Origin: an uncultured bacterium
GTDB lineage: Bacteria > Verrucomicrobiota > Lentisphaeria > Victivallales > UBA1829
Reading direction: 5' to 3'
DNA: 64,000 nucleotides
Assembly (NCBI GenBank): GCA_900548385.1
Contig: URKJ01000005.1
Location: 67,793-131,792, forward strand
Shown one piece after another: positions 16,776 through 60,378 of the stretch (the first letter of the stretch is position 1; each line of letters begins with the position of its first letter). The notes beneath the pieces are model-generated. The model was not told the DNA's origin, made no database searches, and saw nothing but the letters and a program-made list of their open reading frames with translations. Position numbers and translations under genes: made by a program.

Positions 16776-16790
16776 CTACGAGGAAGCTGT

Positions 16791-36551: not shown

Positions 36552-37037
36552 ATGAAAAAAGAGAAAAAAAACGCCGAAACATCGAAAAACGCCGTCCATC
36601 AGGGACTTACCCTTCTGAACCGGAACCATAAAGATTACCCGGATTCCCCGGAAAAAGCAAAACTGGAGGCGTTCGACAATAAATTCCCCGGAAACGATTA
36701 TGTCATCGAATTTGACTGCCCGGAGTTCACCAGTCTTTGCCCCGTTACCGGACAGCCCGATTTCGGGCACATCAAAGTGCGGTATATTGCGGATAAACGC
36801 TGCGTGGAAAGCAAATCTTTAAAACTCTACTTGTTTTCTTACCGGAACCATAATACATTTCATGAAGAAGCGGTCAATCAGATTCTGACCGATCTTGTGA
36901 AACTGCTTTCTCCGCGCTGGATGCGCGTGGAGGGCGTATTCCGTCCGAGAGGCGGGATCGCGATATCCGTTGCGGCGGAGGGCGGTTCCTCGCCGGAACT
37001 GGCATCCAAAACAGAGAAACCTATTCAATTAACATAA
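36552..37037 (+). CDS. queF: NADPH-dependent 7-cyano-7-deazaguanine (preQ0) reductase, type I
   Basis: The catalytic Cys context (SLCPVTGQPDF) and the QueF motif (ESKSLKLYLFSYRN) are present. ATG 36552 is preferred over TTG 36507. Confidence 0.9.
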   Translation: MKKEKKNAETSKNAVHQGLTLLNRNHKDYPDSPEKAKLEAFDNKFPGNDYVIEFDCPEFTSLCPVTGQPDFGHIKVRYIADKRCVESKSLKLYLFSYRNHNTFHEEAVNQILTDLVKLLSPRWMRVEGVFRPRGGIAISVAAEGGSSPELASKTEKPIQLT

Positions 37038-37052
37038 GGTTGAAACAGAAAA

Positions 37053-38276
37053 ATGAACATGGATTTCATTGAAAACGGCGGTGTGACTTCTCCGATGGGA
37101 TTTCAGGCGGCGGGCGTTTGTGCCGGGCTCAAACGCAGTCAGGCTCCCGACATGGCACTGCTCCGCTCCGAAACGCCTTGCAGCTTTTCGGGCACTTTCA
37201 CGTCCAATCTCTTTCCGGCGGCTCCCGTTCAGCTCTGCAAGGAACGCGTTCTGAAGCAGAAGAAGATTCAGGCGGTCGTCATCAACAGCGGCGTGGCAAA
37301 TGCCTGCACGGGGATCGAAGGGTACGGCAATGCTGAAAAAATGGCGGAACTGACCGCGCGCGAACTGAATATTGCTCCGGAAATGGTGATGGTTTCCTCC
37401 ACGGGGCGGATCGGCAACCAGCTGCCGATGGATAAGATTGAAAAAGGGATCGTCATGGCGGCGAAGGCCCTCCGTTCCGACGGCGGCGCGGAAGCCGCGG
37501 AAGCCATCATGACCACCGATACCAAACCGAAAGAGATTGCGCTCTCTTTTGGTGCCGGGAACCGCAAAGTCACGATCGGGGGAATGTGCAAGGGCGCAGG
37601 AATGATCGCTCCTAAAATGACCGTACCTCATGCGACCATGCTCTGCTATATCACAACCGACTGCGCAATTTCCAACGAACTGCTCGGTTCCATGCTCGGT
37701 GAAATCGTCGATGACTCCTTCAACAAAGTCACTGTTGATGGCGATATGAGCACAAACGACACGGTCGTTGTGATGGCGAACGGTGCGTCCGGCGTTGAGA
37801 TCCGGAACGGTTCCCCGGAAGCGGAGCATTTCAAAGTGGCTCTGACGATGGTTGCCCAGCATCTTGCAAGAGCGATTGCGATGGACGGTGAAGGGGCGAC
37901 GAAGTTCGTCAGCGTCGAGGTTCGGGGCGCCGCAACCTCCCATGACGCTGAAATGTGCGCCCGCACCGTAGCCAACTCGCTGCTCTGCAAGACCGCATGG
38001 TTCGGCTGCGATCCGAATTGGGGACGCGTTCTCGCCGCGGCGGGACGTTCCGGCGCGAACTTTTCCGCAGAGAACGTTTCTCTGGATTACGATGAAATGC
38101 CGGTCGTCCGCAACGGAATGGATGCCGGAACGCCGGAAACGGAACTGGCGCAGGTGATGAAGCGCGGCGAATTCACCATCAAGCTGGATCTCGGTGAGGG
38201 ACACGGGACGTTCACGGTCTGGACCTCCGATGTTTCCTATGAATATGTAAAGATCAATGCGGATTATCATACCTGA
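37053..38276 (+). CDS. argJ: Bifunctional ornithine acetyltransferase / N-acetylglutamate synthase
   Basis: The 407-aa protein has the autoprocessing site context HATMLCYITTD and a typical ArgJ N-terminus (GVTSPMGFQAAGV). Confidence 0.92.
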   Translation: MNMDFIENGGVTSPMGFQAAGVCAGLKRSQAPDMALLRSETPCSFSGTFTSNLFPAAPVQLCKERVLKQKKIQAVVINSGVANACTGIEGYGNAEKMAELTARELNIAPEMVMVSSTGRIGNQLPMDKIEKGIVMAAKALRSDGGAEAAEAIMTTDTKPKEIALSFGAGNRKVTIGGMCKGAGMIAPKMTVPHATMLCYITTDCAISNELLGSMLGEIVDDSFNKVTVDGDMSTNDTVVVMANGASGVEIRNGSPEAEHFKVALTMVAQHLARAIAMDGEGATKFVSVEVRGAATSHDAEMCARTVANSLLCKTAWFGCDPNWGRVLAAAGRSGANFSAENVSLDYDEMPVVRNGMDAGTPETELAQVMKRGEFTIKLDLGEGHGTFTVWTSDVSYEYVKINADYHT

Positions 38277-38293
38277 TTCGGAGGACAGATAAA

Positions 38294-39169
38294 ATGAATC
38301 ATGCAATGGAACGGGCGGAAGTGTTGACCGAAGCGCTTCCCTACATTCAGAAATTCCGTGACGACCTGATCGTCATCAAATTCGGCGGCAGTGCGATGGA
38401 GGATCCCGACCTGATCCGGCGGACGATGCGCGACATCGTTCTGCTGGAGGCGACCGGCATGAAACCGGTTGTGGTCCACGGCGGCGGAAAAGCCATTACC
38501 GCGCGGCTGAAAGAACTCAATATCGAAACGAAATTCATCAACGGACTGCGCGTGACCTGCGAAAAGACGATCGCCGTGGTTGACGACGTTCTTCACAACA
38601 ACACGAACCGTCTGCTGGTCAACGGGATCCTGGAAGCGGGCGGAAAAGGCTGCCAGATCTCCGGCAAGAAGATGCTCCGCGCAGAGCGGCTGACTTCCCG
38701 TGACAAAGAGACCGGGGAGGAGCTTGACATCGGATTTGTCGGCAAGGTTGTAGCCGTGGACGTCGCGCCGATCCGCGATGCTCTGAATTACGGTTTTATT
38801 CCGGTGATCGCTCCGCTTGCAGCCGACTTTTACGGTCAGGTGTACAACATCAACGCCGATATGGCGGCGTGTGATATTGCACGCACTCTCAAGGCGCGCA
38901 AGCTGATATTCCTGAGCGATGTCCCCGGAATTCTCCGCGATCCGAAAGACGAAAAATCGTTGATTTCTTCGATCAAAACATCGGAAGTGGAGCCGCTGAT
39001 CGCCGAAGGAGTTCTTTCCGGCGGAATGCTTCCGAAGATCCGCAGTTCGGTTGCCGCGCTCGAAGCGGGGACCCGTGAAGTGCAGATGATCGACGGACGT
39101 GTTCCCCATTCCCTGCTCCTGGAAATTTTCACGGACAGGGGTATCGGTACGGAGATCGTCAAAGGCTGA
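38294..39169 (+). CDS. argB: Acetylglutamate kinase
   Basis: Amino-acid-kinase fold motifs are present (VIKFGGSAM, VVVHGGG, NINADMAA). Confidence 0.92.
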   Translation: MNHAMERAEVLTEALPYIQKFRDDLIVIKFGGSAMEDPDLIRRTMRDIVLLEATGMKPVVVHGGGKAITARLKELNIETKFINGLRVTCEKTIAVVDDVLHNNTNRLLVNGILEAGGKGCQISGKKMLRAERLTSRDKETGEELDIGFVGKVVAVDVAPIRDALNYGFIPVIAPLAADFYGQVYNINADMAACDIARTLKARKLIFLSDVPGILRDPKDEKSLISSIKTSEVEPLIAEGVLSGGMLPKIRSSVAALEAGTREVQMIDGRVPHSLLLEIFTDRGIGTEIVKG

Positions 39170-39195
39170 AACGGACAAGCATCAGTCAGTTGAAG

Positions 39196-39223
39196 AAGAG
39201 CGGACCGGAGACGGGACGCTCTT
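39196..39223 (+). terminator. Weak hairpin after argB
   Basis: AAGAGCG-N14-CGCTCTT is followed by TTCAT. It sits between convergent operons. The loop is long and the T-tract poor. Confidence 0.25.
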
Positions 39224-39243
39224 TTCATATCAGGGGGAAACGG

Positions 39244-40008
39244 TCAGCGCAGTTTGCGTCCGAGAAAACGGATCAGCGCTTCCAGAAGCGTTGCCGGATG
39301 CGGCGGGCAGCCCGGAACGTAAAGGTCGGGTTTCAGGATCTCTTCCACGCCGCCGCAGGTTTCCGGATTGTCCGCATAGAGTCCGCCGGAAACCGCACAG
39401 GCGCCGCATGCGATTACGAACGACGGCTTCGGCACGGCGTCATAAGTCTTTTTCAAAGCCAGCAGCATGTTCCTGCTGACGGGACCCGTTACCAGAATGC
39501 AGTCCGCATGACGCGGTGAAGCGACAACCTGAATGCTGAAACGTCCCATATCCCAGGCAAGAGTATTCAGCACATTGAAATCAAGTTCGCAAGCGGCACA
39601 GCCTCCGGCGGAGACCTGACGGATTTTCAGGGAGCGTCCGCAGAGATCGGCAATCTGCTTATTGGGCTGTAATTCATATTCGTAACCGGAGTCTTTGGTC
39701 CGGATCAGAGCATCCCGGCGGAACGCGGCAAGGTCGTGCTGTCCGGTGAACGTGATCGTTCCCGCCGGGCATGCAGCCGCACATTTGGAACAGAAGAGAC
39801 ATTTGCCCATGTCCAGCGAAACGGAGTCTCCGGAACGGACAATGGCGTCAGTCGGACAGGCTTCCGCACAGCGTCGGCAATCGGTCGGACAGGCGGCGGA
39901 CGCGATTTCCGGAAGTCCTGCAAAACGGTCCGGCATCTGCGGAGCGGCGTATGGGAATTTATTGGTCCGGTATCCCTGTGTCAGCCTGGCTTTCAACGTT
40001 TTCAGCAT
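39244..40008 (-). CDS. Fusion of a 2x[4Fe-4S] ferredoxin (HyfH/HycF/NuoI-like) with a NuoB/HycG/HyfI-like small subunit
   Basis: The N-terminal half has CPTDCRRCAEACP and CLFCSKCAAACP. The C-terminal half has GGCAACE, ACGACAVSGG and VPGCPPHP. The start is ATG 40008 (MLKTLKARL), preceded by an AAGGAGAG Shine-Dalgarno site. Confidence 0.85.
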   Translation of the reverse strand: MLKTLKARLTQGYRTNKFPYAAPQMPDRFAGLPEIASAACPTDCRRCAEACPTDAIVRSGDSVSLDMGKCLFCSKCAAACPAGTITFTGQHDLAAFRRDALIRTKDSGYEYELQPNKQIADLCGRSLKIRQVSAGGCAACELDFNVLNTLAWDMGRFSIQVVASPRHADCILVTGPVSRNMLLALKKTYDAVPKPSFVIACGACAVSGGLYADNPETCGGVEEILKPDLYVPGCPPHPATLLEALIRFLGRKLR

Positions 40009-40021
40009 GGAACAGCTCTCC

Positions 40022-41512
40022 TTACAGGTCATGTCCGCAGTAGGACAGATTGAAACTTTTGTTGCAGATCGGGAAATTGGAAATCTGCTCGCCGCGCAAA
40101 GCCATTGCCAGACCGAACCAGTTGTGGAACGAGGGATCGACGATCTTGTAGGCGGCGAATGACCCGTCCGCTCCGGTTACGGCAGCATGGCAGAGCTCGC
40201 CGCGCCAGGCTTCCACAAGAGAGACGGCGATGGTGTCCGGCATTCTTTTTCCCGGCAGGGTTCCGGGAGCCGCATCGGGAAGAGCGGGAAGCAATTCCCG
40301 GACGAAGCGGAGCGATTCCCGCAGTTCGCGCCGGCGGATCTCCGCGCGGGCGAATACATCGCCGGATCCTGTGCAGCAGACCGCCGGAGCGGCATTGCGG
40401 TACCATCCGTAAGGATGATCTTTGCGGATGTCGCGGCGGATTCCTGCCGCGCGTGCGGCAACGCCGACGAGTCCGATCTCCCGCGCTGTTTTATTGGTGA
40501 CGGTTCCGGTATTTTCCAGACGGTCCAGAACGGACGGCGCGTCAAACATCAGGCCGAGTGCATTATTGAGTTCCGGGGTGACGCGGTCCAACCAGTCGCA
40601 GAGCCGCTGAATCCGTTCCGGTTCCAAGTCAAAACCGATTCCGCCGGGAACGATGATTCCGCGTCCAAACCTGTTCCCGCAGATCGTGGCGGTCATGTTG
40701 AGAAATTCGCCGCGGATGCGTCCGCAGTAGGAAGCGGTCGGCAGGTAGGCAACGTCGCCCGCCAGTGCGCCGAGGTCTCCGGTATGATTGGCGATTCGCT
40801 CCAGTTCCCAGGCAATCGCCCGGATCGCCTGCGCCCGGTCGGATACCCGGCTTGCGGGATCCAACGCTTCCAGAATCTGGCAGTATGCGGCGGCGGACGA
40901 GGTGGAAGTGTCTCCGGCGGCGGTTTCCATAACATGCAGAGTCCGTTTGCCGGGACCGCCCCGGAGCATGTTTTCGATACCCCGGTGCTGATAACCCAGT
41001 GAAATTTCCAGAGAATATACGTCTTCTCCCATGCACTGAAAACGGAAGTGTCCGGGTTCGATGACTCCGGCATGAACGGGCCCTACAGCGACTTCATGGG
41101 CAGCAGAGCCATGAAGCGTAAAATAATCCGTCACTCCGGGATGATTTCCGTCATTTCCCGCTGTGAAGCGGATCGGTTTCAGCCAGGGATGCCCTTCCGG
41201 GACAATGCCGGCCTGTTCGTGGATTTCCCGTTCAAACCAGTGAAATTGTGCGCAGTCGCAGGTCAGGGATGCATAGGATTTTTCAACCCGTGTGGAGGAA
41301 AGACGGATTGACGGATCACTGTCGTCCGTCAAAATGGTGATCAGACGAAAGCCGTCATTCTGTTCCGGCATGGCGAAAAATGACGAAACGTGCCATCCGT
41401 TGTTCCGTATTGCATCAATCACCGTCCGGCGGAATTCCGGGAACGGCAGACACGGCAGAGTGTTCATCGGCGCGGAGCCGGGATTGTTCAACTTCAAAAA
41501 TGAGGATTCCAT
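40022..41512 (-). CDS. HycE/HyfG-like NuoC-NuoD fusion (large-subunit homolog) lacking the [NiFe]-binding cysteines
   Basis: VGPVHAGVIEPGHFRF and LGYQHRGIE are typical of group 4 large subunits. The L1 position reads METAAGDTSTSS and the C-terminus reads SFNLSYCGHDL. There is no CxxC anywhere in the 496 aa. Confidence 0.85.
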   Translation of the reverse strand: MESSFLKLNNPGSAPMNTLPCLPFPEFRRTVIDAIRNNGWHVSSFFAMPEQNDGFRLITILTDDSDPSIRLSSTRVEKSYASLTCDCAQFHWFEREIHEQAGIVPEGHPWLKPIRFTAGNDGNHPGVTDYFTLHGSAAHEVAVGPVHAGVIEPGHFRFQCMGEDVYSLEISLGYQHRGIENMLRGGPGKRTLHVMETAAGDTSTSSAAAYCQILEALDPASRVSDRAQAIRAIAWELERIANHTGDLGALAGDVAYLPTASYCGRIRGEFLNMTATICGNRFGRGIIVPGGIGFDLEPERIQRLCDWLDRVTPELNNALGLMFDAPSVLDRLENTGTVTNKTAREIGLVGVAARAAGIRRDIRKDHPYGWYRNAAPAVCCTGSGDVFARAEIRRRELRESLRFVRELLPALPDAAPGTLPGKRMPDTIAVSLVEAWRGELCHAAVTGADGSFAAYKIVDPSFHNWFGLAMALRGEQISNFPICNKSFNLSYCGHDL

Positions 41513-41513
41513 A

Positions 41514-42959
41514 TCACAGTTCCCCCTGATTGAGAATGAATGTCAGAAAAGTTCCAGCCGCCAGCGCGATGATGACGGCAGCGGCAGGAATGACCCAAAG
41601 CCGTTCCGCCGCCGTCGTGCGTTCCGGCTCTGTGACGGAATCCTGCGGATTTCCCATGCACATTTTCAGGCATGCCATCGACATTCCCGCAAAGACGGCG
41701 AAAAGCAGCAGAAGCACGACCGCTCCGAACAAAAAACCGGATTCCCGCACCAGCAGGTATTCCGTGACGAACAGCGGAGAGGGCGGTGTTCCGCAGATCA
41801 GCAGGATTGCCGTTATCCACAGAACGGCGTTGCGCGGAATCCTGCCGAACATGCCGCCGACAGCTGCCACTGAACGTGTTCCGTAGGCCAGGAGAATGTT
41901 GCCTGCCAGCAGAAACAGCGCCATCTTGAGGACCGAATGACCGCAGAGATGCAGAAAACTGACGCTTTCCAGTCCGCTGCCCCACAGGAGGGCGGCGAGT
42001 CCCATGTGTTCCACGCTGGAATATGCGAGCATTCGTTTGAAATCGCTCTGCCGGATGATGAAGAATGCCGCGACGATCAGGGAAAGGAAGCCGAGAGCAA
42101 TCAGCAGGTTGCTGCAGAACGGTTTCAGCTCTTCCGGCGTAATCTGGCAGAAACGGATAATTCCGAGAAACGAACAGTTCAGGAGCGATCCGGAGAGCAG
42201 GGCGGAAATCGTGCCGGGTGCTTCGCTGTGCGCGTCGGGCAGCCAGGTATGGAAAGGGGCAAGGCCCATTTTCGTGCCGTAGCCTGCAAGGATGAAGATG
42301 AACGCCGCCTTGAACCATCCCGTATGGAAAGAATCCGAGTGTTTGGCAAGTTCGGTCATATTCATTCCGATGTGTCCGGCGGATTCTGCGGCGACCGCCA
42401 TCAGCATCGTTCCGAACAGGGCGAGTCCGATGCCGACCGAGCAGATCAGCAGGTATTTCCACATCGCCTCCAGAGAGCGGTCGGAGCGGTGAAAACAGAT
42501 CAGCGGAGCGCTGACCAGTGTTGTCGCTTCGACTGCAACCCAGAGAAGCCCGAAATTGCGGGCGGTGATGACCAGTGTCATGGTGGAAAGAAACGCGAGC
42601 ATACAGGGGATGAACACCGAGTCCCGCTGGAATCCTGCGGGCTTGTGCGTATGACCTTCCGCCGCCCGGTCCGCGGGAAGCCACATCAGAGTGTGGAGAC
42701 TCACAAACAGAAACAGCAGTGAAGTGATAAGAAGAAAAATCGTTCCGGCGTCATCGAGTCCGATGTCAATCCCGATCCATTCCTGTCCGCGCCAGAAAAA
42801 AGATGCCGGACTCTGGCTGCAGATGGCGCAGATGGTCAGGACCGTATGGGAAAGCGCGGTCAGGAGCAGAATGGAGCGGATCAGCCATGTGCGGCTGCCC
42901 GCGAACCACGCGGCAAAAGCCGCCGTAAGCGGAATGAGAATCAACAGGAGCAGAATCAT
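41514..42959 (-). CDS. HyfF/NuoN/NuoM-like antiporter-type membrane subunit
   Basis: The 481-aa polytopic protein has FHTWLPDAHSEAPGTISALLSG. Confidence 0.85.
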   Translation of the reverse strand: MILLLLILIPLTAAFAAWFAGSRTWLIRSILLLTALSHTVLTICAICSQSPASFFWRGQEWIGIDIGLDDAGTIFLLITSLLFLFVSLHTLMWLPADRAAEGHTHKPAGFQRDSVFIPCMLAFLSTMTLVITARNFGLLWVAVEATTLVSAPLICFHRSDRSLEAMWKYLLICSVGIGLALFGTMLMAVAAESAGHIGMNMTELAKHSDSFHTGWFKAAFIFILAGYGTKMGLAPFHTWLPDAHSEAPGTISALLSGSLLNCSFLGIIRFCQITPEELKPFCSNLLIALGFLSLIVAAFFIIRQSDFKRMLAYSSVEHMGLAALLWGSGLESVSFLHLCGHSVLKMALFLLAGNILLAYGTRSVAAVGGMFGRIPRNAVLWITAILLICGTPPSPLFVTEYLLVRESGFLFGAVVLLLLFAVFAGMSMACLKMCMGNPQDSVTEPERTTAAERLWVIPAAAVIIALAAGTFLTFILNQGEL

Positions 42960-43657
42960 AAGTCGGTATCCTCCGCGGGGTCGGTTGCTTCTTCGGCGCC
43001 GTGCCAGTCGTCGAGTTTGTTGAGACGGTCGGAATCGATATGGTCGAATTCGCGGCTGATCTGGAAAACGGCGATTCCCATGACGAACACCAGCACGAAA
43101 ATATCAAGCAGGATACCGAGTTCGACAACGAATCCGTATTCCAGCGCCATTCCGGTTCCGAAGATTGCAATTCCGTTTTCAAAGACCAGAAAGCCGATTG
43201 CCTGTGTGATCGCTTTGCGTCGTGCCACGATGATGAAGAGACCGATCAGGATCGTTGAGAACGCCACCGGAGCAGACAGCGGGGATACCGCCAGATCCGC
43301 CAGATCAATGCGTCGGCAGACAAGGAAAGACCCGCCGGCGATCAGCAGGGCAATCAGAATTGAGAAAGAGTAGCCGATCATCGGTTCCAGTTCGCGGCAG
43401 ACGTGCGCCGACCGCATTGTCCGCGCCAGCAGGTACGGAAGCGCAATACATTTGATTCCGATATTGACCGCCGCCATGAGAATCAGCTCCGTGTGGGGCG
43501 GTGCATCGTGCCAGTTCCATATTACGAGCGGAAGAAATCCCAGCAGGAGCCCTTGCACCGCCACCAGCCGGATGCAGTGCAGCAGCCGGCTTGACGCCAC
43601 CAGGAGCAGATCCACCGCGAGGATCGCCGCAAACAGGATTTCCGTCAGTTCCGTCAT
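42956..43657 (-). CDS. HyfE-like membrane subunit
   Basis: The 233-aa protein has a HyfE-like core (AIGFLVFENGIAIFG). ATGA overlaps occur at both ends. The C-terminal tail is acidic. Confidence 0.75.
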   Translation of the reverse strand: MTELTEILFAAILAVDLLLVASSRLLHCIRLVAVQGLLLGFLPLVIWNWHDAPPHTELILMAAVNIGIKCIALPYLLARTMRSAHVCRELEPMIGYSFSILIALLIAGGSFLVCRRIDLADLAVSPLSAPVAFSTILIGLFIIVARRKAITQAIGFLVFENGIAIFGTGMALEYGFVVELGILLDIFVLVFVMGIAVFQISREFDHIDSDRLNKLDDWHGAEEATDPAEDTDL

Positions 43658-44604
43658 TGTATGGTCCCTTCAAATATCAGCAGCAGAACGATGGCGATCA
43701 CGGCAAGGCAGAGAGCCGCCATGAGCATTTGCGGCACTTTAAGGAAGCGGAAACGCGCCATTACGGATTCCACGATCCCGATAATGACCGCCGTTGCAAA
43801 GATTGCGGCAAAATAGATCAGAGCGCCGTTGAGCCCGACGAAAAGTCCTGCGGGCAGGAGCGCTGTAATAAAGAATGTGGCCAACAGCCAGAGTTTCACC
43901 GCTGCGCCGTAATGAATCAGTGCAAGGTCGGGACCGCCGTGATCAAGAATCATGGCTTCATGGATCATCGTCAGCTCCAGATGAGTTTCCGGATCGTCGA
44001 ACGGAACGCGGCAGGTTTCGGAGAGCATTACAATGAAGATTGCTCCCGCCGTCAGCAGGATTGACGTTCCGCTGATACTCCAGGCGGCGGAGCCGGTGCT
44101 GTTAAGCATTCTGCTGAGGGAAACGGAACCGGTCAGCATGATGAAAAACACCACGATGCAGAGGAACACCACTTCGGCAAGGGCGGAGAACTGAATTTCC
44201 CGGCTGGCGCCCATTCCCTCAAAACTGGAACCCGTATCAAGCGCGCCAAGCACGGTTGCGACGCGGGCGAAACCCAACAGATAAAGAAACAGCAGGACAT
44301 CTCCCCCGAACGAGAGCGGGGAGTTGCAGAACGCATAGGGCAGAAACAGCATCGCGCTGAACAGTGCCGCCAGATTGCAGAGCGGAGACAGACGGACGAG
44401 TCCGCCGGAAGTGGAACTGTATACGCTTTCTTTGCGGAGCAGTTTCGCCATGTCGTAATAGAGCTGAAGCAGACGCGGACCTCTGCGTCCGGCGAAAAAC
44501 GCCTTGACCTTGTTGATGATTCCCGGCAGGAGCGGACTCAGAGCCAGGGACAGGACGAGCGCCGCCGCCCAGATGAAGTCATTGAAGTAAACGTATTCCG
44601 GCAT
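43654..44604 (-). CDS. HycD/HyfC/NuoH-like membrane subunit
   Basis: Motifs are GRRGPRLLQLYYDMAKLL, DTGSSFEGMGASRE and RVPFDDPETHLELTMIHEAMILDHGG. Confidence 0.88.
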   Translation of the reverse strand: MPEYVYFNDFIWAAALVLSLALSPLLPGIINKVKAFFAGRRGPRLLQLYYDMAKLLRKESVYSSTSGGLVRLSPLCNLAALFSAMLFLPYAFCNSPLSFGGDVLLFLYLLGFARVATVLGALDTGSSFEGMGASREIQFSALAEVVFLCIVVFFIMLTGSVSLSRMLNSTGSAAWSISGTSILLTAGAIFIVMLSETCRVPFDDPETHLELTMIHEAMILDHGGPDLALIHYGAAVKLWLLATFFITALLPAGLFVGLNGALIYFAAIFATAVIIGIVESVMARFRFLKVPQMLMAALCLAVIAIVLLLIFEGTIQ

Positions 44605-46598
44605 TATTTCACCTTCACGATCTGCGCGCTGTTCTGCGGCGAGACGACCGGCTCCGGTTCCGGTTCAAAGAGGAACCCCCATGCCAGCATGGTCAGCAGG
44701 GCAAGCACCATGACCAAAATATACAAATGCAGGTAACCGGATTGAAGATGATGGAAACGGTCTGCCAGTTTCCCGGTGAACGAAAAGAGCGGACGCCAAA
44801 GTCCGCGTTCTGCAAGATCTTCAGTCGAGACAGCGATTTCGGCGTGTGCCGGGAAAAGCCCGTCAGGACGATGCAGTCTTTTTTTCGGTCGCAGGAACCC
44901 GGCGAAGAGATCGACCAGCGGTTGGACAAACGCGGTTCCGGTATACTCCATCCGGGGAGTCGGTTCGGCGAATCCGCAGTCCCAGGTCCCGCGTACTTCC
45001 TGTTTGCGTCCGTTCGGGAGCGTCAGGCGGTAAATGATGAGAACGGCAAAGAAAAGCAGGACGATTCCGGAAAAGAGCGCAATCTGGAAGATGTATTCGG
45101 AAAGACGGAACATCTCCGTCATCACGGTGTCCGGAGGAAAACCGGAAAAGTGCTGGATCAGCGGTGTGAATGCTCTGCAGAGGAACGGAGCCCCGGCGGT
45201 CATGCCGACTGTCGCAAGCAGCAGGAGGACCAGCGGAAACTGCATGACGGAAGAGAGCGGTTTTGCGTTTGCCGCGTTTTCCGACCTCGGTTCACCGAGG
45301 AAGACCGCGCCGATCGCTTTGGTGAAGACCCCGGCTGCGATTCCGCCGATCAGGGCCAGCGCGATCACTGTTAAAACAGAGGCGGCGAAAACTGCACCGC
45401 GGTGGGTCATGATTCCGGCAAATGCCGCCATATAGATCAGAAACTCGCCGAGAAACCCGTTGAACGGCGGAAGTCCGCTGATCGAGAGGGAGGAAAAGAC
45501 AAATACCGACCCCGTCCACGGCATCCGTTTAAGCAGTCCGCCGAGACGGTCCATGTTGAGCAGTCCGGTTGCTCTGAGCACCGAGCCCGCGCAGAGAAAC
45601 AGAGCGCCTTTGAGCACCGCATGGTTGAGCATGTGCAGAAACGCCCCCGCGCAGCCGAATACCGCCATTACATGGTCGCCGTGTTCCACTCCGAGAAAGC
45701 CGAGTCCGAAGCCGATGCTGATGATTCCCATGTTTTCCACACTGGAATAGGCAAGCAGACGTTTGAGATTACGCTGGGCGAGAGCGAAAAGAACACCGCC
45801 GAGCGCTCCGATAAGTCCGAGAACGAGAAAAGCCCAGCCGAAAATGCCGAGCGGGCCGTCGGAATTGATCAGCATTCGCAGAATGCCGTAGAAACCGAGA
45901 TTGATCATGGATGCCGACATTACCGCTGAGACGGGCGCCGGTGCGGCAGGATGTGCCTCCGGCAGCCAGACGTGCAGGACCGGGAACCCGATCTTGAGTC
46001 CGAAACCCGCCATGCCGAGGACGATCACGGCTGCCATGAACGAGGGAGGAACATTGTCGGAACCTCCATATACGAACATCAGGATCAGGAATGCCGCCCC
46101 CGCATGGCAGGCGAGCAGATAGACCCATGCCGCCCGCATGGTTTCACGGGCATGATACTCAAAAGCGACAAGAGCGAAACTCATCATTCCCATCAGTTCC
46201 CATGCGAGGAGAAATTCAATGGGCGTTACGGCAACGGTTACCCATGTCATTGCCGCAAGCGTGGCGTTGAAAAAGAACCAGAACCAGCCGTTCCGTCCGT
46301 CGGCATGGCCTTCCAGATACCCGACGGCGTGGGTCGCCGCAAGGATGCCGATGACATAAACCGGCAGAAGAAAGAGGGCGGAAAGGGTGTCGAATGAAAA
46401 CGAAACAGTATAGATAACACTTTGAATTTCGTTACGGAATCCGAAAAACGTTGACACGGCGGGTACCAGTCCGCAGATGCAGCCTGCAACACAGGTGAAA
46501 TATCCGATTCTTACAGCCAGTCCATCCCGTCTGTTCGCAAGGAGGGCAAAAAATCCTCCTGCCGCGAGGATGAGTATTGCTGTCAGAATCTGTATCAC
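44604..46598 (-). CDS. HyfB/HycC/NuoL-like antiporter-type membrane subunit
   Basis: The 664-aa polytopic protein has HVWLPEAHPAAPAPVSAVMSA. It starts at GTG, with GGAG 10 nt upstream. Confidence 0.88.
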   Translation of the reverse strand: MIQILTAILILAAGGFFALLANRRDGLAVRIGYFTCVAGCICGLVPAVSTFFGFRNEIQSVIYTVSFSFDTLSALFLLPVYVIGILAATHAVGYLEGHADGRNGWFWFFFNATLAAMTWVTVAVTPIEFLLAWELMGMMSFALVAFEYHARETMRAAWVYLLACHAGAAFLILMFVYGGSDNVPPSFMAAVIVLGMAGFGLKIGFPVLHVWLPEAHPAAPAPVSAVMSASMINLGFYGILRMLINSDGPLGIFGWAFLVLGLIGALGGVLFALAQRNLKRLLAYSSVENMGIISIGFGLGFLGVEHGDHVMAVFGCAGAFLHMLNHAVLKGALFLCAGSVLRATGLLNMDRLGGLLKRMPWTGSVFVFSSLSISGLPPFNGFLGEFLIYMAAFAGIMTHRGAVFAASVLTVIALALIGGIAAGVFTKAIGAVFLGEPRSENAANAKPLSSVMQFPLVLLLLATVGMTAGAPFLCRAFTPLIQHFSGFPPDTVMTEMFRLSEYIFQIALFSGIVLLFFAVLIIYRLTLPNGRKQEVRGTWDCGFAEPTPRMEYTGTAFVQPLVDLFAGFLRPKKRLHRPDGLFPAHAEIAVSTEDLAERGLWRPLFSFTGKLADRFHHLQSGYLHLYILVMVLALLTMLAWGFLFEPEPEPVVSPQNSAQIVKVK

Positions 46599-46715
46599 GA
46601 AAGAATCTCCAAAAATATTAGAATCTTTTAAAATACACCGTTTTTACTATTTTTCAAGGAGCATTCTGTTTCTTTCCGTTTCAATTTCCGCGGGAGATGG
46701 AGAAGAAACGAGCCG

Positions 46716-49232
46716 TCAGATTTTTTCGCGTTCGCGGTTCTCTGCGGTGTCAGGCTGAACCGCTCTGTTCAGGAACCGTTCGCGTGCCAGCTGAAACAGC
46801 CTGGCGATGGAGTAGACCATCTGAATATCACTGTCGGAGAAGATCCGCCGTTCCCGGATGAAATCCACGCTGACAAAACCATAAATCTCACCATTGATCC
46901 GGATTCCCGCAACCAGAGCGGAACGGATGTTCAGATTGCGCAGATGTTCCGTTTCACTGTAAAACTTCTTCGGCAGTTCGTCGACGTCAGAGATCGCAAT
47001 GGCGGTTTCGCTTTGAATCTGTTCTTTCCATGCGTCGATATCCGGCATGGCGGCATCCTGCAGGGAGGCCCGGACGGAACGGATGCCTTCCCGGCACCAT
47101 TCGTATTCGCAGGTTGCACGGGAGAAATGAGCGGCGGTGTAGCGGAAAATATAACAGCGGTCGGCGCCGGAATGGCTGCCGATGACGGCAAGCATGTCGT
47201 TGATGGCTGTGTGCAGATCCGGTGCGGTCATGATCCTAGTCAGGGATTCGTTGATGATCTGTTCCGCTTTGACGGCGGCATCCAACTGCCGGATCGTCTC
47301 TTTCTGCTTCTTTTCCAGCTCATGCAGTTTGGTGGTGTTGATGCCGATTCCGAGCAGCAGCCGGGTGCCGTCGGAAAGCGTGAGACTGTCTTTCATGGTC
47401 CGAACGATATATTTCTTCCCGTGTTTGTCGATCAGTGTTTCCTGAAATTCATGAAGTTTGCCTGAATTCAGTGCTTCCAGATCATCCGCGTGATATTTGT
47501 CTGCTAATTCCGGCGCATGGGAAAATATTTCGCTGTCAGTGTGTCCGATGATCTGTTCCTTGGGAAGGTTGATCATTTCGGAAAACCGGCTGTTCGCAAG
47601 CATGTAACGGAAATCGTCGTTGGCTTTTTTGACGAACAGATAGCCGGGCAGATTGTCGATCAGGGAATTGAGCAGAAGCAGGTTGTCCTGACAGAGCATT
47701 TCGTTTTTCCGTGCTTCGGTAATATCCTGAATGATCCCGAAGAATTCGCTGCCGCCGGAAGGCTTCGGCACTTTGCGGATCCGCATTTCGAAATAGAATT
47801 TCCGTCCGGGGGCGCCGGCGATATACTTCAGACTGGCGGAATCCGTTGTTCCGTTGCAGAGGCGCTGCCAGACGGACCGGAATTCTTTCATGTATTCTGG
47901 GAAAATCCACAATTCCGCCGGGACGGATTTCCCGTTCTGCATTGGCCAGAAGTGCGGATTGCGGATCGGTTGTTTGATGCGTCCGTTCAGGTCACAGCGG
48001 AAAGCGACCACTTCTGCCATCTCCGCCGCGGTTGTCAGCATCGTTTCGATTCGCCGGGTCTGATGGCGACGGTAAAGCAGGATGAACATTCCGGCGACAA
48101 GTATGAAAACACAGAACAGCACATCGGCGAGCCACTCCTGACGATACAGTCCGAACAGAGTCGGCGGAGGGTTGACAAGTTCCGTTCCGACAGGAATGGA
48201 GGAACTGGGGATGTCGAACCGTTTCAGGGTATCGTATTGAAGCAGCGTATGAGTCGGTCCCTGTTGAACGGGCAGAGAGGATGCGGGGATTCCGGAGAGC
48301 AGCTGGTATGCGATTCTTCCGGCGAGTTCTCCCTGAAGCCGTCCCGAGTTGGTGACGCCGCCTGCCGCGCCGTGTTGTACATAGGACTCGTATTTCCCGA
48401 TGATGAGTCCGGGAAATATGCTTCTGAGACGGGGAAGCACCAGGTTGCCGCCGGCAAGTTTTGTATCTTTGACGGAACTCCAGGAGTGAAAGAACAGGAT
48501 GGTTTGCGGCGGCAGGGAAAGTACTTTATTGAACATTTCATCCGTGGAATATTCATCGCCGGAGATCAGCTGAATGGGGATGTTCAGAAGAAACTGATTT
48601 TCCGCAAGCATTTCCTGATAGCTTTGCAGTTGTGCTTTCCCGGCAGCTCCCGCCTCGATGACCAGTGCGAAAGAACGGGTTTCCGGGAACAGCTTCGTTG
48701 CAAAAAACGTGTTTTGGAACCAGAGACTTTTCGTTTCGATTCCGGTAATGTTCGTTTTCCCCTGAAGTTTGAGTCCGAGAGGCCCGTGATAGGAGGCGAT
48801 CAGGATCGGCGTTCCCTCCGGCTGTGGAATCCTGCCGTCCAGAAACAGATCGGCTGCGGCATTGTCGTTGAGGATCAGCAGATCATAACTGGTGTTCTTC
48901 AGTTTGGTCCGGATTGCTTTGATATCCTCCGGTGAAGGAGAGTTTTCGAGACGATAGCGGATGCCGAGCTCGTATCCTTCGTAATGCGTCATGATGTCTT
49001 TTTGATTCAGAGTCTTTTTGATCCCTTTGCTGAGATTACTGGAAAAAGGATCGCCGGAGGTGTAGGAATCAATCTGAAGAATCCGGTATGTTTTCCCGTC
49101 CAGCCGGGGGATTGCCTGAGCCATAATGCCCGTGCAAAAAAGCAGGTACACCAATACCGCCGAAAAGAAAAAAGATGGAAAAGCAGTCTGTCTGCTGCCG
49201 GATTTTGCAAATATGAAGCCAGACCGATTCAT
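46716..49232 (-). CDS. Membrane sensor: periplasmic ABC-substrate-binding-like domain, TM helix, two PAS domains and a GAF domain, with no recognisable output domain
   Basis: The N-terminal anchor is followed by a PF04392-like pattern (NITGIE, GELAGRIAYQLLSGIPASSLPV) and a TM helix (LADVLFCVFILVAGMFILLY). Two PAS-like blocks and a C-terminal GAF-like block follow. I saw no H-box, GGDEF, EAL or HD-GYP motif. The start is ATG 49232 or GTG 49265. Confidence 0.7.
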   Translation of the reverse strand: MNRSGFIFAKSGSRQTAFPSFFFSAVLVYLLFCTGIMAQAIPRLDGKTYRILQIDSYTSGDPFSSNLSKGIKKTLNQKDIMTHYEGYELGIRYRLENSPSPEDIKAIRTKLKNTSYDLLILNDNAAADLFLDGRIPQPEGTPILIASYHGPLGLKLQGKTNITGIETKSLWFQNTFFATKLFPETRSFALVIEAGAAGKAQLQSYQEMLAENQFLLNIPIQLISGDEYSTDEMFNKVLSLPPQTILFFHSWSSVKDTKLAGGNLVLPRLRSIFPGLIIGKYESYVQHGAAGGVTNSGRLQGELAGRIAYQLLSGIPASSLPVQQGPTHTLLQYDTLKRFDIPSSSIPVGTELVNPPPTLFGLYRQEWLADVLFCVFILVAGMFILLYRRHQTRRIETMLTTAAEMAEVVAFRCDLNGRIKQPIRNPHFWPMQNGKSVPAELWIFPEYMKEFRSVWQRLCNGTTDSASLKYIAGAPGRKFYFEMRIRKVPKPSGGSEFFGIIQDITEARKNEMLCQDNLLLLNSLIDNLPGYLFVKKANDDFRYMLANSRFSEMINLPKEQIIGHTDSEIFSHAPELADKYHADDLEALNSGKLHEFQETLIDKHGKKYIVRTMKDSLTLSDGTRLLLGIGINTTKLHELEKKQKETIRQLDAAVKAEQIINESLTRIMTAPDLHTAINDMLAVIGSHSGADRCYIFRYTAAHFSRATCEYEWCREGIRSVRASLQDAAMPDIDAWKEQIQSETAIAISDVDELPKKFYSETEHLRNLNIRSALVAGIRINGEIYGFVSVDFIRERRIFSDSDIQMVYSIARLFQLARERFLNRAVQPDTAENREREKI

Positions 49233-49275
49233 TTTGTGGAACTCCCCCTTGTTTACCCCGGTCACATGAAAATAG

Positions 49276-49304
49276 CTCTATAGGGAATATAATACGGAAG
49301 AATA
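49276..49304 (-). promoter_or_regulatory. Consensus sigma70 promoter of the sensor gene (TTGACA-N17-TATATT on the minus strand)
   Basis: The plus strand shows TGTCAA at 49299-49304 and AATATA at 49276-49281, with a 17-nt spacer. This favours ATG 49232 as the start. Confidence 0.55.
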
Positions 49305-49434
49305 AATCTGTCAAGGGGGAAAGCATGAAATATCAGAATATATTGTTCATATTTTCCCTGTTACCGGACCGGGATTTCCCGGAGCCGGTGACAGAAGGGA
49401 GCGTGTTTTTCCCGTTTTCCCGAACGGCGGGACT

Positions 49435-50112
49435 TCAAAAGCGGCGGACGATGTCGGCAACGTCGATCCATTGCGTTTCCGGGTCGGAGGAAATATACGC
49501 GAGGCGCTGTTCAAATTTTTTCCATTCCGGTTCGCTGTCCTGCATTTCACAACTGTGTCCCCAGAAGTAAAAAACGCCGTTTTCCCGTTTGGCGGCTTCA
49601 AAACGGGCGATAAAGTCATCATGGCGGAAGTGGGCGGAACTTTTCAGCAGAAGCGGATTTTCGCAATCAAGCACATGCAGGGTGTTTTCCGTGGTCCGTC
49701 CGTAGAGAAAACCGGCGTCGGCGAGCCCTTTGGCGGTGTCTTCCGTGGAACAACCGGAGCCATAGACGAATCCGGGGATTTCCATTTGAAACAAGTCTTC
49801 GAGCACGAGCCGCGCCTCGGTGGCATCGTACACGAATTCTTTGACCGGGACTTTGAGCGCGTTGGCGTGAAAATAACCGTGCGATGCGATCCGGAAGCCT
49901 TTATAGATATCCGCCGCCTCTTTCAGAGAGACGACCCGGTTGACGAATCCCGGATTTTCGGGAAACTGCCATGCGCTTGTCCGGCGGATTCCCGGATACA
50001 TCAGCCCCGGATTCAGGTTGAACGTGGCTTTGGCATGACAGTTGTTCAAAAGTTCGATAAGGCGGATGTCGGTTTCGACTCCGTCGTCCCAGCAGCAGGC
50101 GACTTGCACCAT
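49435..50112 (-). CDS. CE4-family polysaccharide deacetylase/deformylase-like protein (cytoplasmic)
   Basis: A DD motif (CWDDG) and an H-x3-H motif (HGYFH) are present. The 225-aa protein has no signal peptide. Confidence 0.75.
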   Translation of the reverse strand: MVQVACCWDDGVETDIRLIELLNNCHAKATFNLNPGLMYPGIRRTSAWQFPENPGFVNRVVSLKEAADIYKGFRIASHGYFHANALKVPVKEFVYDATEARLVLEDLFQMEIPGFVYGSGCSTEDTAKGLADAGFLYGRTTENTLHVLDCENPLLLKSSAHFRHDDFIARFEAAKRENGVFYFWGHSCEMQDSEPEWKKFEQRLAYISSDPETQWIDVADIVRRF

Positions 50113-50129
50113 GGCGATACTCCGTTATT

Positions 50130-50948
50130 TTATGATTGTGTCAGATACAGCGGTTTCTGGATGGCTTCCGAATAATCAACCGTGTGTACCGGATGCCCAT
50201 CGTAGGTCAGAGTCCCGTCCGGAGATTCTCCGAAGCGGCCTGCGGCAAAATCAGCGGCGACGCGGGGAAACAGATCCCAGTCCCCTGCGCGTTTCAGAGT
50301 TTCCAGATTATGTGCGGCGACTTCTTCCAGCAGATCGCCGTTTTCCCGGAGCTCTTTCAGCGGATGACCGCAGAGATCGACCGGGATTCGTGCTGAAATG
50401 CCGGGAATGTGCCCGTGATCCATCTCCGGAGCGCCGGGTGTGAACGGCGTCGCAATCAGAACGCTGCTGCGCAGATGATCAAATCCTGCGAGGATCGCTT
50501 TCCGCACGGGAAGCGTGTGCAGACCGGTCAGCATGCGTTTTCCGTCCTGTTTTACGGTCAGATCGCCGGGGTGAACGTTCAGACACGGGAAATCTCCCAC
50601 AATATTGGTCAGCGGGACGAATCCGGCGAGAAGCCCGAAATCCGGCTGAAAAACGGCGAGCCGTTTCCGCAGGGCGTCGGTCCAAAGCTGCCGGACCCGA
50701 TACCCTTCTTCCGTTGCAATGGAGATTTTAGAGAGTCCGTGCTCCGCGTAAAAACGGAAAATATCCTCTTCGACAAGCGGGATTCCGTACTGTTCCGCCA
50801 GAAGTCGCGCACGGGACTTTTCCGGCCGGTCCGTGACGATTGCACAACAATGCCATTCTCTGCCGTATGACGGCGATGACAGCAGTTTTTCCGCGTTTGT
50901 TCCTGTTCCGCTGAGGAAAATCACGGCTTTTGCGTATTTTCTTTTCAC
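50130..50948 (-). CDS. Formyl_trans_N-fold formyltransferase (PurN-like) with a C-terminal extension of about 90 aa
   Basis: Motifs are AVIFLSGTGTNAEKLL, LLAGF and LNVHPGDL. I chose GTG 50948 as the start because an AGGAGAG Shine-Dalgarno site lies 8 nt upstream. The ORF-track start is 50999. Confidence 0.65.
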   Translation of the reverse strand: MKRKYAKAVIFLSGTGTNAEKLLSSPSYGREWHCCAIVTDRPEKSRARLLAEQYGIPLVEEDIFRFYAEHGLSKISIATEEGYRVRQLWTDALRKRLAVFQPDFGLLAGFVPLTNIVGDFPCLNVHPGDLTVKQDGKRMLTGLHTLPVRKAILAGFDHLRSSVLIATPFTPGAPEMDHGHIPGISARIPVDLCGHPLKELRENGDLLEEVAAHNLETLKRAGDWDLFPRVAADFAAGRFGESPDGTLTYDGHPVHTVDYSEAIQKPLYLTQS

Positions 50949-51067
50949 AAAAACTTCTCTCCTGATTTGAAATTTGCGCATTTGATGTATAAAATACATA
51001 GTGTTTCAATTTTCGGCAAGTGAAAAGACAAAAAAAATTAAAATATCATAATTTCAGGAGAACGAAT

Positions 51068-52599: not shown

Positions 52600-52607
52600 G
52601 GGATGTC

Positions 52608-53597: not shown

Positions 53598-53633
53598 AGT
53601 GATATTCATAAATGTATAAGGAAGAGTGAAACA

Positions 53634-54587: not shown

Positions 54588-54589
54588 TC

Positions 54590-54793
54590 ATGACGATAGA
54601 ATTCAATGGTGTTCGGGAAGATCTGGCGGAACCGGTGACGATTGCCGCGTTTTTCCGGTTCAAAGGGATTTGCAATCCCAATCTGATTCTGGAACTCAAT
54701 GGAGAAATCCTCGCGCCTGCCGCGGACTTGGAATGTATTCCGTTGAATGACGGCGACCGGTTGAATGCGTTTTCGCTGGTCGGAGGAGGATGA
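54590..54793 (+). CDS. thiS: ThiS/MoaD-type sulfur-carrier protein
   Basis: The 67-aa protein ends in the diglycine tail ...FSLVGGG. The ATG lies 3 nt after the upstream stop. Confidence 0.8.
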   Translation: MTIEFNGVREDLAEPVTIAAFFRFKGICNPNLILELNGEILAPAADLECIPLNDGDRLNAFSLVGGG

Positions 54794-54797
54794 GAAC

Positions 54798-55397: not shown

Positions 55398-55400
55398 CGG

Positions 55401-56912: not shown

Positions 56913-56916
56913 CGGA

Positions 56917-58449: not shown

Positions 58450-58460
58450 GTGCGGGTTCC

Positions 58461-60232: not shown

Positions 60233-60274
60233 TTTCCGTCCTTGACTGATAACTGGAAATGTCCTTCTTTGTTA

Positions 60275-60303: not shown

Positions 60304-60313
60304 GAGGTAAAAC

Positions 60314-60327: not shown

Positions 60328-60378
60328 AAAAAAGAAAAATGGCGCTCTGTCCCTGACGGTTTTTGACTCGCCGGAGGA

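Follow-up and report, generated by a model that had tools for sequence, protein, structure and literature searches.

An Ehr operon in a gut Lentisphaeria bacterium: a probable ferredoxin-fed ion pump on a hydrogenase scaffold devoid of nickel ligands

What can a membrane complex of the hydrogenase family do once all the residues that would bind its nickel-iron centre have gone? The question is raised by an operon in a 64,000-nucleotide (nt) stretch of contig URKJ01000005.1 (assembly GCA_900548385.1), from an uncultured bacterium of the Lentisphaeria (Victivallales). We call this whole 64-kb stretch the window. Its interval 39244-46598 holds six minus-strand open reading frames (ORFs) of 664, 316, 233, 481, 496 and 262 amino acids (aa), named here ehrA, ehrB, ehrC, ehrD, ehrL and ehrS. 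Judging from their sequences, they encode an Ehr (Ech/Hyf-hydrogenase-related) complex of the ferredoxin-fused subtype, and we propose that this complex probably works as a ferredoxin-driven ion pump.

Ehr complexes are encoded in hundreds of species and, in evolutionary terms, mark the point where complex I and the membrane-bound hydrogenases meet. An initial annotation, made from the sequence alone, had assigned the operon to the Ehr-type class and had described it as an ion-translocating redox machine with a catalytic site that it did not recognise. Our comparisons agree with the class, as HycE is the best match of the large subunit by sequence and fold and every Ni-Fe ligand is missing, and they are consistent with the description. 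The group-4-like large subunit without Ni-Fe cysteines is accompanied by NuoL-, NuoH-, HyfE- and NuoN/M-like membrane subunits and by a small subunit. This gene set agrees with that of the Geobacter sulfurreducens Ehr, in a comparison of subunit names rather than of aligned sequences, although the Geobacter complex is listed with seven genes (the name EhrA-1 implies a second EhrA) and ours has six.

The large subunit and its former active site

EhrL combines the Pfam domains Complex1_30kDa and Complex1_49kDa, which correspond to NuoC and NuoD. Among solved structures, its best match is HycE of formate hydrogenlyase (FHL), with 122 bits for EhrL alone and 202 bits for a profile of its family; the profile scores are 163 for MbhL, 150 for Thermus Nqo4 and 96 bits for MbsL. 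An AlphaFold2 model computed with 64 homologues (predicted local distance difference test, pLDDT, 87.3; predicted template modelling score, pTM, 0.89) is uncertain only at the NuoC-NuoD linker, residues 173-175, the beta1-beta2 loop and the last five residues. Its best fold match is again HycE (template modelling score, TM-score, 0.86), followed by Escherichia coli NuoCD (0.80-0.85).

In the profile alignment to solved structures, the HycE motif RVCGIC pairs with T197-A198-A199-G200-D201-T202 of EhrL, and DPCYSC with N488-L489-S490-Y491-C492-G493. All four [NiFe] Cys ligands are therefore replaced, by A199, T202, S490 and G493, and the reading frame is intact. We followed these positions in the best 80 of at least 583 EhrL relatives found in a scan of species-representative genomes, a set 52-79% identical to the EhrL of the window. 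Residue 199 is Ala or Ser in 78 of the 80 and residue 202 is Thr or Ser in 77. Neither the RxCGxCxxxH motif of group 4 nor its C-terminal DPCxxCxx(H/R) motif is found in EhrL, and CxxC occurs nowhere in the 496 aa. The quinone ligands of complex I are missing as well, with Tyr87 of Thermus Nqo4 replaced by G200 (80/80 homologues) and His38 by I151 (78/80). On all these points the initial annotation had read the sequence correctly, including the nucleotide ranges of the L1 and C-terminal motifs, the lack of any CxxC and the missing NuoD-type quinone pattern.

The proton-supply residues, in contrast to the ligands, are those of a hydrogenase. H188 and E193 of HycE, the beta1-beta2 loop His and the proton-gate Glu, correspond to H147 and E152; the canopy Arg R478 corresponds to R437; and H284, E437 and R395 of the proton path correspond to H243, E396 and R354. 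This canopy Arg/His/Glu/Arg path is common to FHL and complex I (PMC9474812). Three EhrL motifs are near-invariant in alignments of 120 and of 80 homologues, namely GPVHAGVIEPGHFRFQC, M-E-T-x-x-G-D-(T/S)-(S/T) and the C-terminus F-P-x-C-N-K-S-F-N-L-S-Y-C-G-H-D-L. Within the last, C483, N484, K485, S486, S490, G493 and D495-L496 are common even to the related Hyq proteins and to divergent paralogues. The protein ends at L496, the aligned position of an Arg of HycE after which the C-terminal extension of HycE is cleaved off; EhrL therefore has no such extension to process.

Of the six subunits, EhrL also varies least. Identity reaches at least 95% in 28% of its columns, compared with 24% of those in EhrS and 12-18% of those in the membrane subunits. 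These figures point to strong purifying selection on the EhrL pocket. By homology, this pocket corresponds to the one next to the proximal cluster of HycE, and it is predicted to be served still by the hydrogenase proton path. As for the cysteines, C160, C263, C278, C441, C483 and C492 are near-invariant in the ferredoxin-fused subtype, and C483 alone is kept across both subtypes and two divergent paralogues. An extra Fe-S cluster in EhrL was considered and rejected, as only C483 is universal and a single helix of the model holds both C263 and C278, at a distance of 15 residues.

Electron input, membrane arm and proposed mechanism

EhrS belongs to the families Fer4 and Oxidored_q6, a HycF/HyfH/NuoI-like 2x[4Fe-4S] domain being fused to a NuoB domain. 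In the Protein Data Bank (PDB) the NuoB part is closest to MbhJ (108 bits) and HycG (95), and residues 5-102 match HycF (42). All twelve Fe-S cysteines are present, in line with the earlier claim that the two ferredoxin-type clusters and the NuoB-type proximal cluster had been retained. Those of the ferredoxin motifs are kept in 62-75 of 75 EhrS homologues and those of the proximal cluster in 74-75, with the CxxC-type four-Cys arrangement of group 4 small subunits. The tandem-Cys signature of cluster N2 in complex I is not seen in EhrS, which reads GGCAACE where NDUFS7 reads LACCAVE; tandem cysteines are likewise absent from membrane-bound hydrogenases (PMC9474812). The first ferredoxin motif (C48-C59, 39856-39891) has the spacing Cx3Cx2Cx3CP, not the usual Cx2Cx2Cx3CP, and most homologues keep it.

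Every subunit is closer to FHL/Hyf or to the membrane-bound hydrogenase MBH than to complex I, and the six family labels given by the initial annotation stand with Pfam and NCBIfam. For the coupling residues, we took the FHL list of PMC9474812 and located the equivalents by alignment to HycE, HycD and HycC. EhrA (NCBIfam HyfB, 1.5e-135) has HycC as its best solved relative (169.5 bits). It conserves the Cys of the ND3-like loop (HycC C537, here C541), the Glu residues of transmembrane helices (TM) 5 and 12 (E135 and E391, here E134 and E385) and the TM11 triad (H328, H332 and K336, here H322, H326 and K330). It also retains a conserved TM7 Lys, K202, where HycC has L208. EhrB (Pfam NADHdh, 9.6e-35) scores 103 bits with HycD, 62 with MbhM, 38.5 with MbsM and 29 or less with ND1. 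The E-channel residues Y102, R108, E130, E138, E189, E199 and E206 of HycD correspond to Y108, R114, E136, E144, E196, E206 and E216 of EhrB, all at least 95% conserved except E206. EhrC matches the NCBIfam hydrogenase-4 membrane subunit HyfE (1.9e-21), has a weak NuoK-like Pfam match and conserves the membrane carboxylates E89, E160 and E179. EhrD (NCBIfam HyfF, 4e-86) is closest to MbhH among solved relatives (82 bits) and conserves E144, K230, K308, H337, K345 and E400.

The antiporter-like subunits had been described as intact. This holds for most key residues but not for the TM8 Lys, which is replaced in EhrD by N261-C262 (42177-42182) in nearly all family members and in EhrA by N233 (45900-45902) in the clade of the window only, Lys being found in 38 of 63 relatives. 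All in all, the coupling machinery looks functional and hydrogenase-like, though not textbook.

The surroundings of related operons bear on the identity of the redox partners. When 659 neighbouring ORFs of related loci were clustered by BLAST, a single recurrent family emerged, and in a Pfam census of the 131 nearest other ORFs around some 75 operons no family occurred in more than three loci; no hydrogenase-maturation family was among those listed. The recurrent family is a protein of about 234 aa with a helix-turn-helix (HTH) domain, HTH_17, and a phosphotransferase-system enzyme IIA (EIIA) domain, PTS_EIIA_2 (type 2, PtsN-like), with an IPH histidine motif. Its gene overlaps the ehrA start in 34 of the 59 loci with enough upstream DNA (for example L055:3793-4497, L053:3925-4629 and L042:3764-4453, with about 30 further loci), and the proteins are 50-74% identical across most carrying loci, in several phyla. 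Thus, the HTH-EIIA gene appears to behave as a seventh gene of the module. The window does not have it, and neither do most loci of Lentisphaeria, Victivallaceae and Oligosphaeraceae, among them all of the closest relatives. As no redox partner gene recurs nearby, the donor or acceptor is likely to be a general carrier, and for a self-contained module with a fused HycF-like domain the carrier would most simply be ferredoxin, a general soluble one. A conserved formate dehydrogenase-Ehr (FDH-Ehr) partnership, also considered, finds no support at this locus, the neighbour clustering and the census being empty except for HTH-EIIA.

We therefore picture the following sequence of events as a working model. 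Reduced ferredoxin, presumably made at pyruvate oxidation by the sugar-fermenting host, would dock on the HycF-like 2x[4Fe-4S] domain of EhrS, and its electrons would pass on to the MbhJ/HycG-type proximal [4Fe-4S] cluster. They might then drive a proton-coupled reduction in the nickel-free pocket at the EhrL/EhrS/EhrB interface. This pocket would still draw on the hydrogenase proton-supply network (H147, E152, R437, H243, E396, R354), and it would have gained the conserved D201, C483-N-K-S, Y491, C492 and H494 while the four Cys ligands were lost. The charge change could be relayed by the ND3-like loop of EhrA, with C541, and by the HycD-like E-channel of EhrB. It would reach EhrC together with EhrA and EhrD, the two subunits predicted to carry H+ or Na+ across the membrane. 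The complex may work in the opposite direction too.

Several points weigh against this proposal. The literature reports neither a biochemical activity nor an acceptor for any Ehr complex, which leaves the reduction step in the pocket hypothetical. The Hyq relatives have no ferredoxin domain, and ferredoxin is therefore not a universal partner of the wider family. The canopy Asp, described as strictly conserved in hydrogenases and complex I (PMC9474812), is D529 in HycE and N488 in EhrL (40049-40051), with Asn in 75 of the 80 homologues; the position is Asp in the divergent Variovorax and L042 paralogues. With the TM8 Lys gone from EhrD, and from EhrA in the clade of the window, pumping may depart from the canonical scheme. 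Lastly, as regards hyp, quinone-synthesis, pyruvate:ferredoxin oxidoreductase (PFOR) and ferredoxin genes, our evidence for this organism covers the 64-kb window.

Known relatives and alternative functions

Ehr was reportedly defined by Marreiros et al. in 2013. The class is already common and well documented and has a genetically studied relative, Hyq, both of which the initial annotation had missed. The operon of the window is a further member of this class and adds no new principle, and the function of Ehr is no more testable from the window than from Geobacter or rhizobia. What our analysis adds is a residue-level map onto the FHL structure, signatures of the former active site, a division into two subtypes, the absence of a conserved partner and the linked HTH-EIIA gene. 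The comparison thereby yields concrete residues of interest (D201, C483, C492, H494 and E152) as well as a linked regulator.

In G. sulfurreducens, subunits EhrA, C, L and S of the complex encoded by GSU0739-45 have all been detected as proteins; they are more abundant on formate, and their physiological role was never investigated (PMC7894505). Riflemargulisbacteria, Saganbacteria and Melainabacteria carry Ehr complexes, some of which group with Lentisphaerae sequences in the published tree, where the latter already lie within the Ehr clade; an FDH-Ehr complex was proposed for Margulisbacteria, and no full ubiquinone or menaquinone pathway was identified in Riflemargulisbacteria (PMC6349859). 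The Ehr of comammox Nitrospira has been described as close to group 4f (PMC10284858). Bacteria of the candidate phyla radiation (CPR) carry versions that form a separate clade, for which the authors considered interaction with H2 likely impossible (PMC7304191). About half of the Nitrospirales genomes encode Ehr, its function was still called unknown in 2025, and its expression in N. moscoviensis was not raised by H2 (PMC12342949). In the literature from 2019 onwards we found no functional or structural Ehr study, and we found nothing usable on the quinones or energy metabolism of Victivallis; a text match in a Cupriavidus fitness paper proved unrelated to Ehr.

Azorhizobium caulinodans deleted for hyqRBCEFGI grew more slowly as a diazotroph and showed changes in both H2 recycling and H2 evolution, and the authors, noting that HyqG lacks both CxxC motifs, called a Ni-Fe site 'uncertain, if not unlikely' (PMC2650096, PMC3357923). 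For sequence comparison, we used the annotated pRL11 operon of Rhizobium leguminosarum. The likeness extends to six genes in the same order (B-C-E-F-G-I), to HyqG as a Cys-motif-free NuoC-NuoD fusion of about 500 aa with the common signatures GPVHAGxIEPGHFRF, GD and FPxCNKSFxxSYxGHDL, and to a CxxC-type NuoB subunit. However, HyqG is only about 33% identical to EhrL and has its second C-terminal Cys at the position of L489, not C492, and HyqI is a NuoB-only protein of 177 aa without the 2x[4Fe-4S] domain that EhrS carries. The context differs too: a short HTH gene precedes Hyq, NifA controls it and its hosts are aerobic diazotrophs, whereas the present operon comes from gut Lentisphaeria. On sequence grounds, the wider family comprises two subtypes, with and without the fused ferredoxin domain, and the operon of the window has the domain.

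EhrA, EhrB, EhrL and the ferredoxin domain find their closest counterparts, in sequence and in fold, in FHL/Hyf (Hyc, PDB 7Z0S); the HyfB, HyfE and HyfF models fit the membrane arm, and conservation extends to the proton path, to the Cys of the ND3-like loop and to the E-channel. In contrast to FHL/Hyf, the Ehr complex has no Ni-Fe ligands, has Asn for the canopy Asp and has no cleaved C-terminal extension. It also fuses the equivalents of HycF and HycG in EhrS, keeps in EhrA the TM7 Lys that HycC does not have, and comes without HycB, FdhF, HyfA, HyfD, hycI or hyp genes in the window. With complex I it has in common the superfamily, the overall fold and the residues of the proton path, but not Tyr87, His38 or the tandem-Cys N2; EhrB is only weakly similar to ND1, and the six-gene operon has no separate NuoA/J/K-type and no NuoE/F/G genes, the ND3-like part being fused to EhrA as in HycC. 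The MBH and MBS (Mbx; membrane-bound sulfane sulfur reductase) complexes of Pyrococcus are ferredoxin-fed, ion-translocating relatives; MbhJ is the best match of the NuoB domain and MbhH that of EhrD. MBS moreover sets an example of chemistry in the absence of a Ni-Fe site (as cited in PMC9474812). The present complex differs from them in having no Mrp-type small subunits (MbhA-G) and six genes as against the 13 subunits of MBS, and it stands apart from MBS by score (MbsL 96 vs HycE 202 bits for EhrL; MbsM 38.5 vs HycD 103 bits for EhrB).

What, then, would the complex reduce? A small cytoplasmic compound other than a quinone, such as sulfur or a disulfide, and menaquinone are both possible, with neither a likely answer in itself, and protons seem distinctly less probable than either. 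In a bolder reading, which we think rather unlikely, the remodelled pocket with D201, C483-N-K-S, Y491, C492 and H494 makes up a catalytic centre that is new to the complex I superfamily, possibly a mononuclear metal site of another kind or else a thiol site adjacent to the cluster. If true, this would mean either a ferredoxin-driven pump with an acceptor never tied to the superfamily or H2 chemistry without nickel. A small cytoplasmic acceptor handled beside the proximal cluster, as MBS does with sulfane sulfur, is at least as likely as quinone or H2 chemistry. If the acceptor came to light, metabolic models for organisms as different as gut fermenters, nitrifiers and metal reducers, and for many uncultured phyla, could gain an energy-conserving reaction that they now lack.

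The two rivals that keep a turnover reaction differ in how they fit these data. A ferredoxin:menaquinone oxidoreductase would be a minimal ferredoxin-fed complex I, with the quinone reduced by the proximal cluster at the EhrL/EhrS/EhrB interface, or it would run in reverse and use the ion gradient to push electrons from quinol to ferredoxin. In the Hyq work, a quinone-linked enzyme was deduced from the homology of HyqG, HyqI and HyqC elements (PMC3357923), many hosts of close homologues are respiratory (Acidobacteriota, Planctomycetota, Desulfobacterota, Verrucomicrobiota), the canopy proton path is one that complex I also has (PMC9474812), and the large energy span from ferredoxin to quinone would justify two antiporter-like subunits. 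We nevertheless hold this reading to be possible rather than likely, because the head-group Tyr and His are replaced (by the invariant G200 and by I151), the cluster motif is the CxxC of hydrogenases without the tandem-Cys N2 signature, EhrB is far nearer HycD than ND1, and Ehr occurs in Riflemargulisbacteria, where no full quinone pathway was identified (PMC6349859). Less probable, and quite unlikely in our view, is a non-canonical hydrogenase resembling the claimed 'endo-hydrogenase' HyqBCEFGI of Azorhizobium, with H2 handled at a non-standard site. Such an enzyme would account for the H2 phenotypes of the hyq deletion in an organism whose HyqG also lacks the CxxC motifs (PMC2650096, PMC3357923), and Rhizobium HyqG has the GD and FPxCNKSF..SY.GHDL signatures in common with EhrL; hydrogenase traits are seen in the chassis, in the Glu of the beta1-beta2 loop and in the small subunit with its CxxC, and the Geobacter Ehr proteins rise on formate, where H2 formation was suspected (PMC7894505). 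Yet the four ligand positions are non-Cys and C483 is the sole Cys conserved across subtypes, which leaves no known H2-activating cofactor site; EhrL has no C-terminal extension for protease-dependent maturation, and neither hyp nor hycI genes in the window nor a maturation family among those listed for the 131 nearest ORFs were found. The Hyq evidence is indirect and in vivo, from nitrogen-fixing cultures in which nitrogenase also makes H2. In addition, H2 did not increase Ehr expression in N. moscoviensis (PMC12342949), and the authors of the CPR study considered that such proteins likely cannot interact with H2 (PMC7304191).

The remaining rivals take catalysis away from EhrL or from the operon altogether. 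The Fe-S chain might sense the state of ferredoxin and switch an Mrp-like cation/proton antiporter, with no chemistry in EhrL. The lack of a recognisable acceptor site, the relatedness of the antiporter-like and HyfE-like subunits to Mrp and the frequent linkage of an HTH-EIIA(Ntr-like) gene agree with such a homeostatic role, PtsN being linked to K+ control. But EhrL is the most conserved subunit and keeps the full proton path, which is hard to explain for a mere sensor, and we know of no complex I relative that acts as a redox-gated antiporter; we consider this very unlikely. No more promising is the idea that the operon encodes the membrane module of a larger enzyme whose partner is encoded elsewhere. 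The fused HycF-like domain is the module that takes electrons directly from ferredoxin in MBH and in Ech, the energy-converting hydrogenase, which speaks against a separate partner, and no HycB-like connector, formate dehydrogenase or NuoE/F lies in the window or recurs near the roughly 75 operons. Its model would be the FDH-Ehr complex proposed for Margulisbacteria (PMC6349859), and the rise of the Geobacter Ehr on formate (PMC7894505) and the loose binding of FdhF to FHL via HycB (PMC9474812) are in keeping with it. As for a decaying hydrogenase operon or a sequencing or assembly artefact, the loss of all catalytic cysteines is what one expects of a pseudogene-like relic. However, the identical 496-aa EhrL recurs in 109 blocks of public assemblies, mostly human gut metagenomes, and on 50 contigs, with contigs of up to 0.97 Mb, and its 90% cluster has 78 members; all six frames are intact and coupled, and the replaced motifs are near-invariant across phyla in the most conserved subunit. 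The exact recurrence of the protein and its conservation refute this explanation, whose probability we rate as negligible.

Operon organisation, neighbourhood and distribution

The genes and other features are collected in Table 1. The junctions read from the sequence are TAATG for ehrA/ehrB, ATGA for ehrB/ehrC and for ehrC/ehrD, and a gap of 1 nt for ehrD/ehrL; at ehrL/ehrS the TAA stop is followed directly by GGAGAG, 7 nt and the ATG at 40008. The six coupled genes and their junctions are just as the initial annotation had given them, down to the Shine-Dalgarno site spanning the preceding stop. The 262-aa ORF of ehrS is open from 40032, inside ehrL, and ATG 40008 is its M9. This ATG is the likely start, because of its Shine-Dalgarno sequence, the lengths of EhrS homologues (about 252-256 aa) and the NCBIfam HycF/HyfH model alignments, which start at residue 9. 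The ehrA start codon is GTG, with a GGAGA Shine-Dalgarno sequence 7 nt before it. The 86-nt segment with the hairpin downstream of ehrS folds at -23.2 kcal/mol (z = -2.6); the hairpin has a weak U-run and was missed by the consensus scan. No Rfam match to a regulatory RNA was found in the leader or the operon at E values up to 1.

Table 1. Features of the ehr locus, in window coordinates
Feature	Position	Strand	Details and basis
ehrA, HyfB/HycC-like antiporter-like subunit with ND3-like C-terminal extension	44604..46598	-	664 aa
ehrB, HycD/NuoH-like membrane anchor	43654..44604	-	316 aa
ehrC, HyfE-like membrane subunit	42956..43657	-	233 aa
ehrD, HyfF/NuoM-N-like antiporter-like subunit	41514..42959	-	481 aa
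ehrL, NuoC-NuoD fusion 'large subunit' without Ni-Fe or quinone ligands	40022..41512	-	496 aa
ehrS, HycF-like 2x[4Fe-4S] domain and MbhJ/HycG-like small subunit	39244..40008	-	254 aa
EhrL beta1-beta2 loop G144-PVHAGVIEPGHF-R157, hydrogenase type	41042..41083	-	near-invariant, 80 homologues
EhrL former L1 motif M195-ETAAGDTSTS-S206; G200-D201 invariant	40895..40930	-	profile alignment to HycE/Nqo4, column counts
EhrL C-terminal signature C483-NKSFNLSYCGHD-L496, in place of DPCxxC	40025..40066	-	alignments
EhrS ferredoxin-type Cys motifs C48/52/55/59 and C78/81/84/88 (262-aa numbering)	39769..39891	-	sequence
EhrS proximal-cluster ligands C145-x-x-C148, C212, C242	39307..39600	-	alignment to MbhJ, HycG, NDUFS7
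Promoter-like site TTGAAA-16-TATTTT	46630..46657	-	consensus scan only, 9/12 matches; within the 117-nt gap that precedes ehrA
Hairpin after the ehrS stop, between convergent ehrS and argB; possible terminator	39191..39227	-	RNA fold
Upstream neighbour, membrane sensor-like protein (ABC_sub_bind + PAS + GAF)	46716..49265	-	Pfam; 849 aa (or 802 aa)

Neighbours were identified across the whole window from gene calls and Pfam matches on contigs with the same proteins. No hyp, hycI, formate dehydrogenase, CO dehydrogenase, NuoE/F or HycB-like connector gene was found in the window, which confirms the first four of these absences as previously stated. The genes present include those for UvrA, Lnt, RsmB, a penicillin-binding protein and EF-P as well as argB, argJ and queF. 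The protein encoded directly upstream of ehrA, on the same strand, has a periplasmic ABC_sub_bind-like domain besides PAS and GAF, and Pfam recognised no output domain in it; its gene has its own strong promoter-like site (49286-49314), and no homologue was found beside Ehr operons in 80 other loci. We regard it as context only. Two minus-strand ORFs of 425 and 303 aa (37029-38306 and 38267-39178) run opposite to argJ and argB. They are longer than the real genes, are missing from the gene calls on matching contigs and look like shadow frames. Positions 1-30000 and 50000-64000 are mostly occupied by carbohydrate-use clusters, with a LacI/GntR regulator, an SBP_bac_10 prepilin-type protein and then GH5, GH130 (glycoside hydrolase) or CBM (carbohydrate-binding module) genes. 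This content fits a polysaccharide-degrading gut member of the Planctomycetes-Verrucomicrobia-Chlamydiae (PVC) group.

With this operon, Ehr is placed in a bacterium that turns up again and again in metagenomes of the human gut. The hosts of the best 80 relatives belong to Lentisphaeria/Victivallales, Oligosphaeraceae, Kiritimatiellia, Verrucomicrobiota, Planctomycetota, Acidobacteriota, Desulfobacterota, Spirochaetota, Cloacimonadota, Elusimicrobia and Eisenbacteria, and the order A-B-C-D-L-S is the same in about 75 loci of many phyla. Two divergent Ehr-type operons lie next to each other in some genomes, among them a Victivallis metagenome-assembled genome and a Variovorax plasmid (L042:4611-12442 on the plus and 13217-20947 on the minus strand; L086:2842-10126 and from 13538; L048:1018-4024). 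The large subunit of the second L042 copy is about 41% identical to the EhrL of the window and has Ala at the position of C492.

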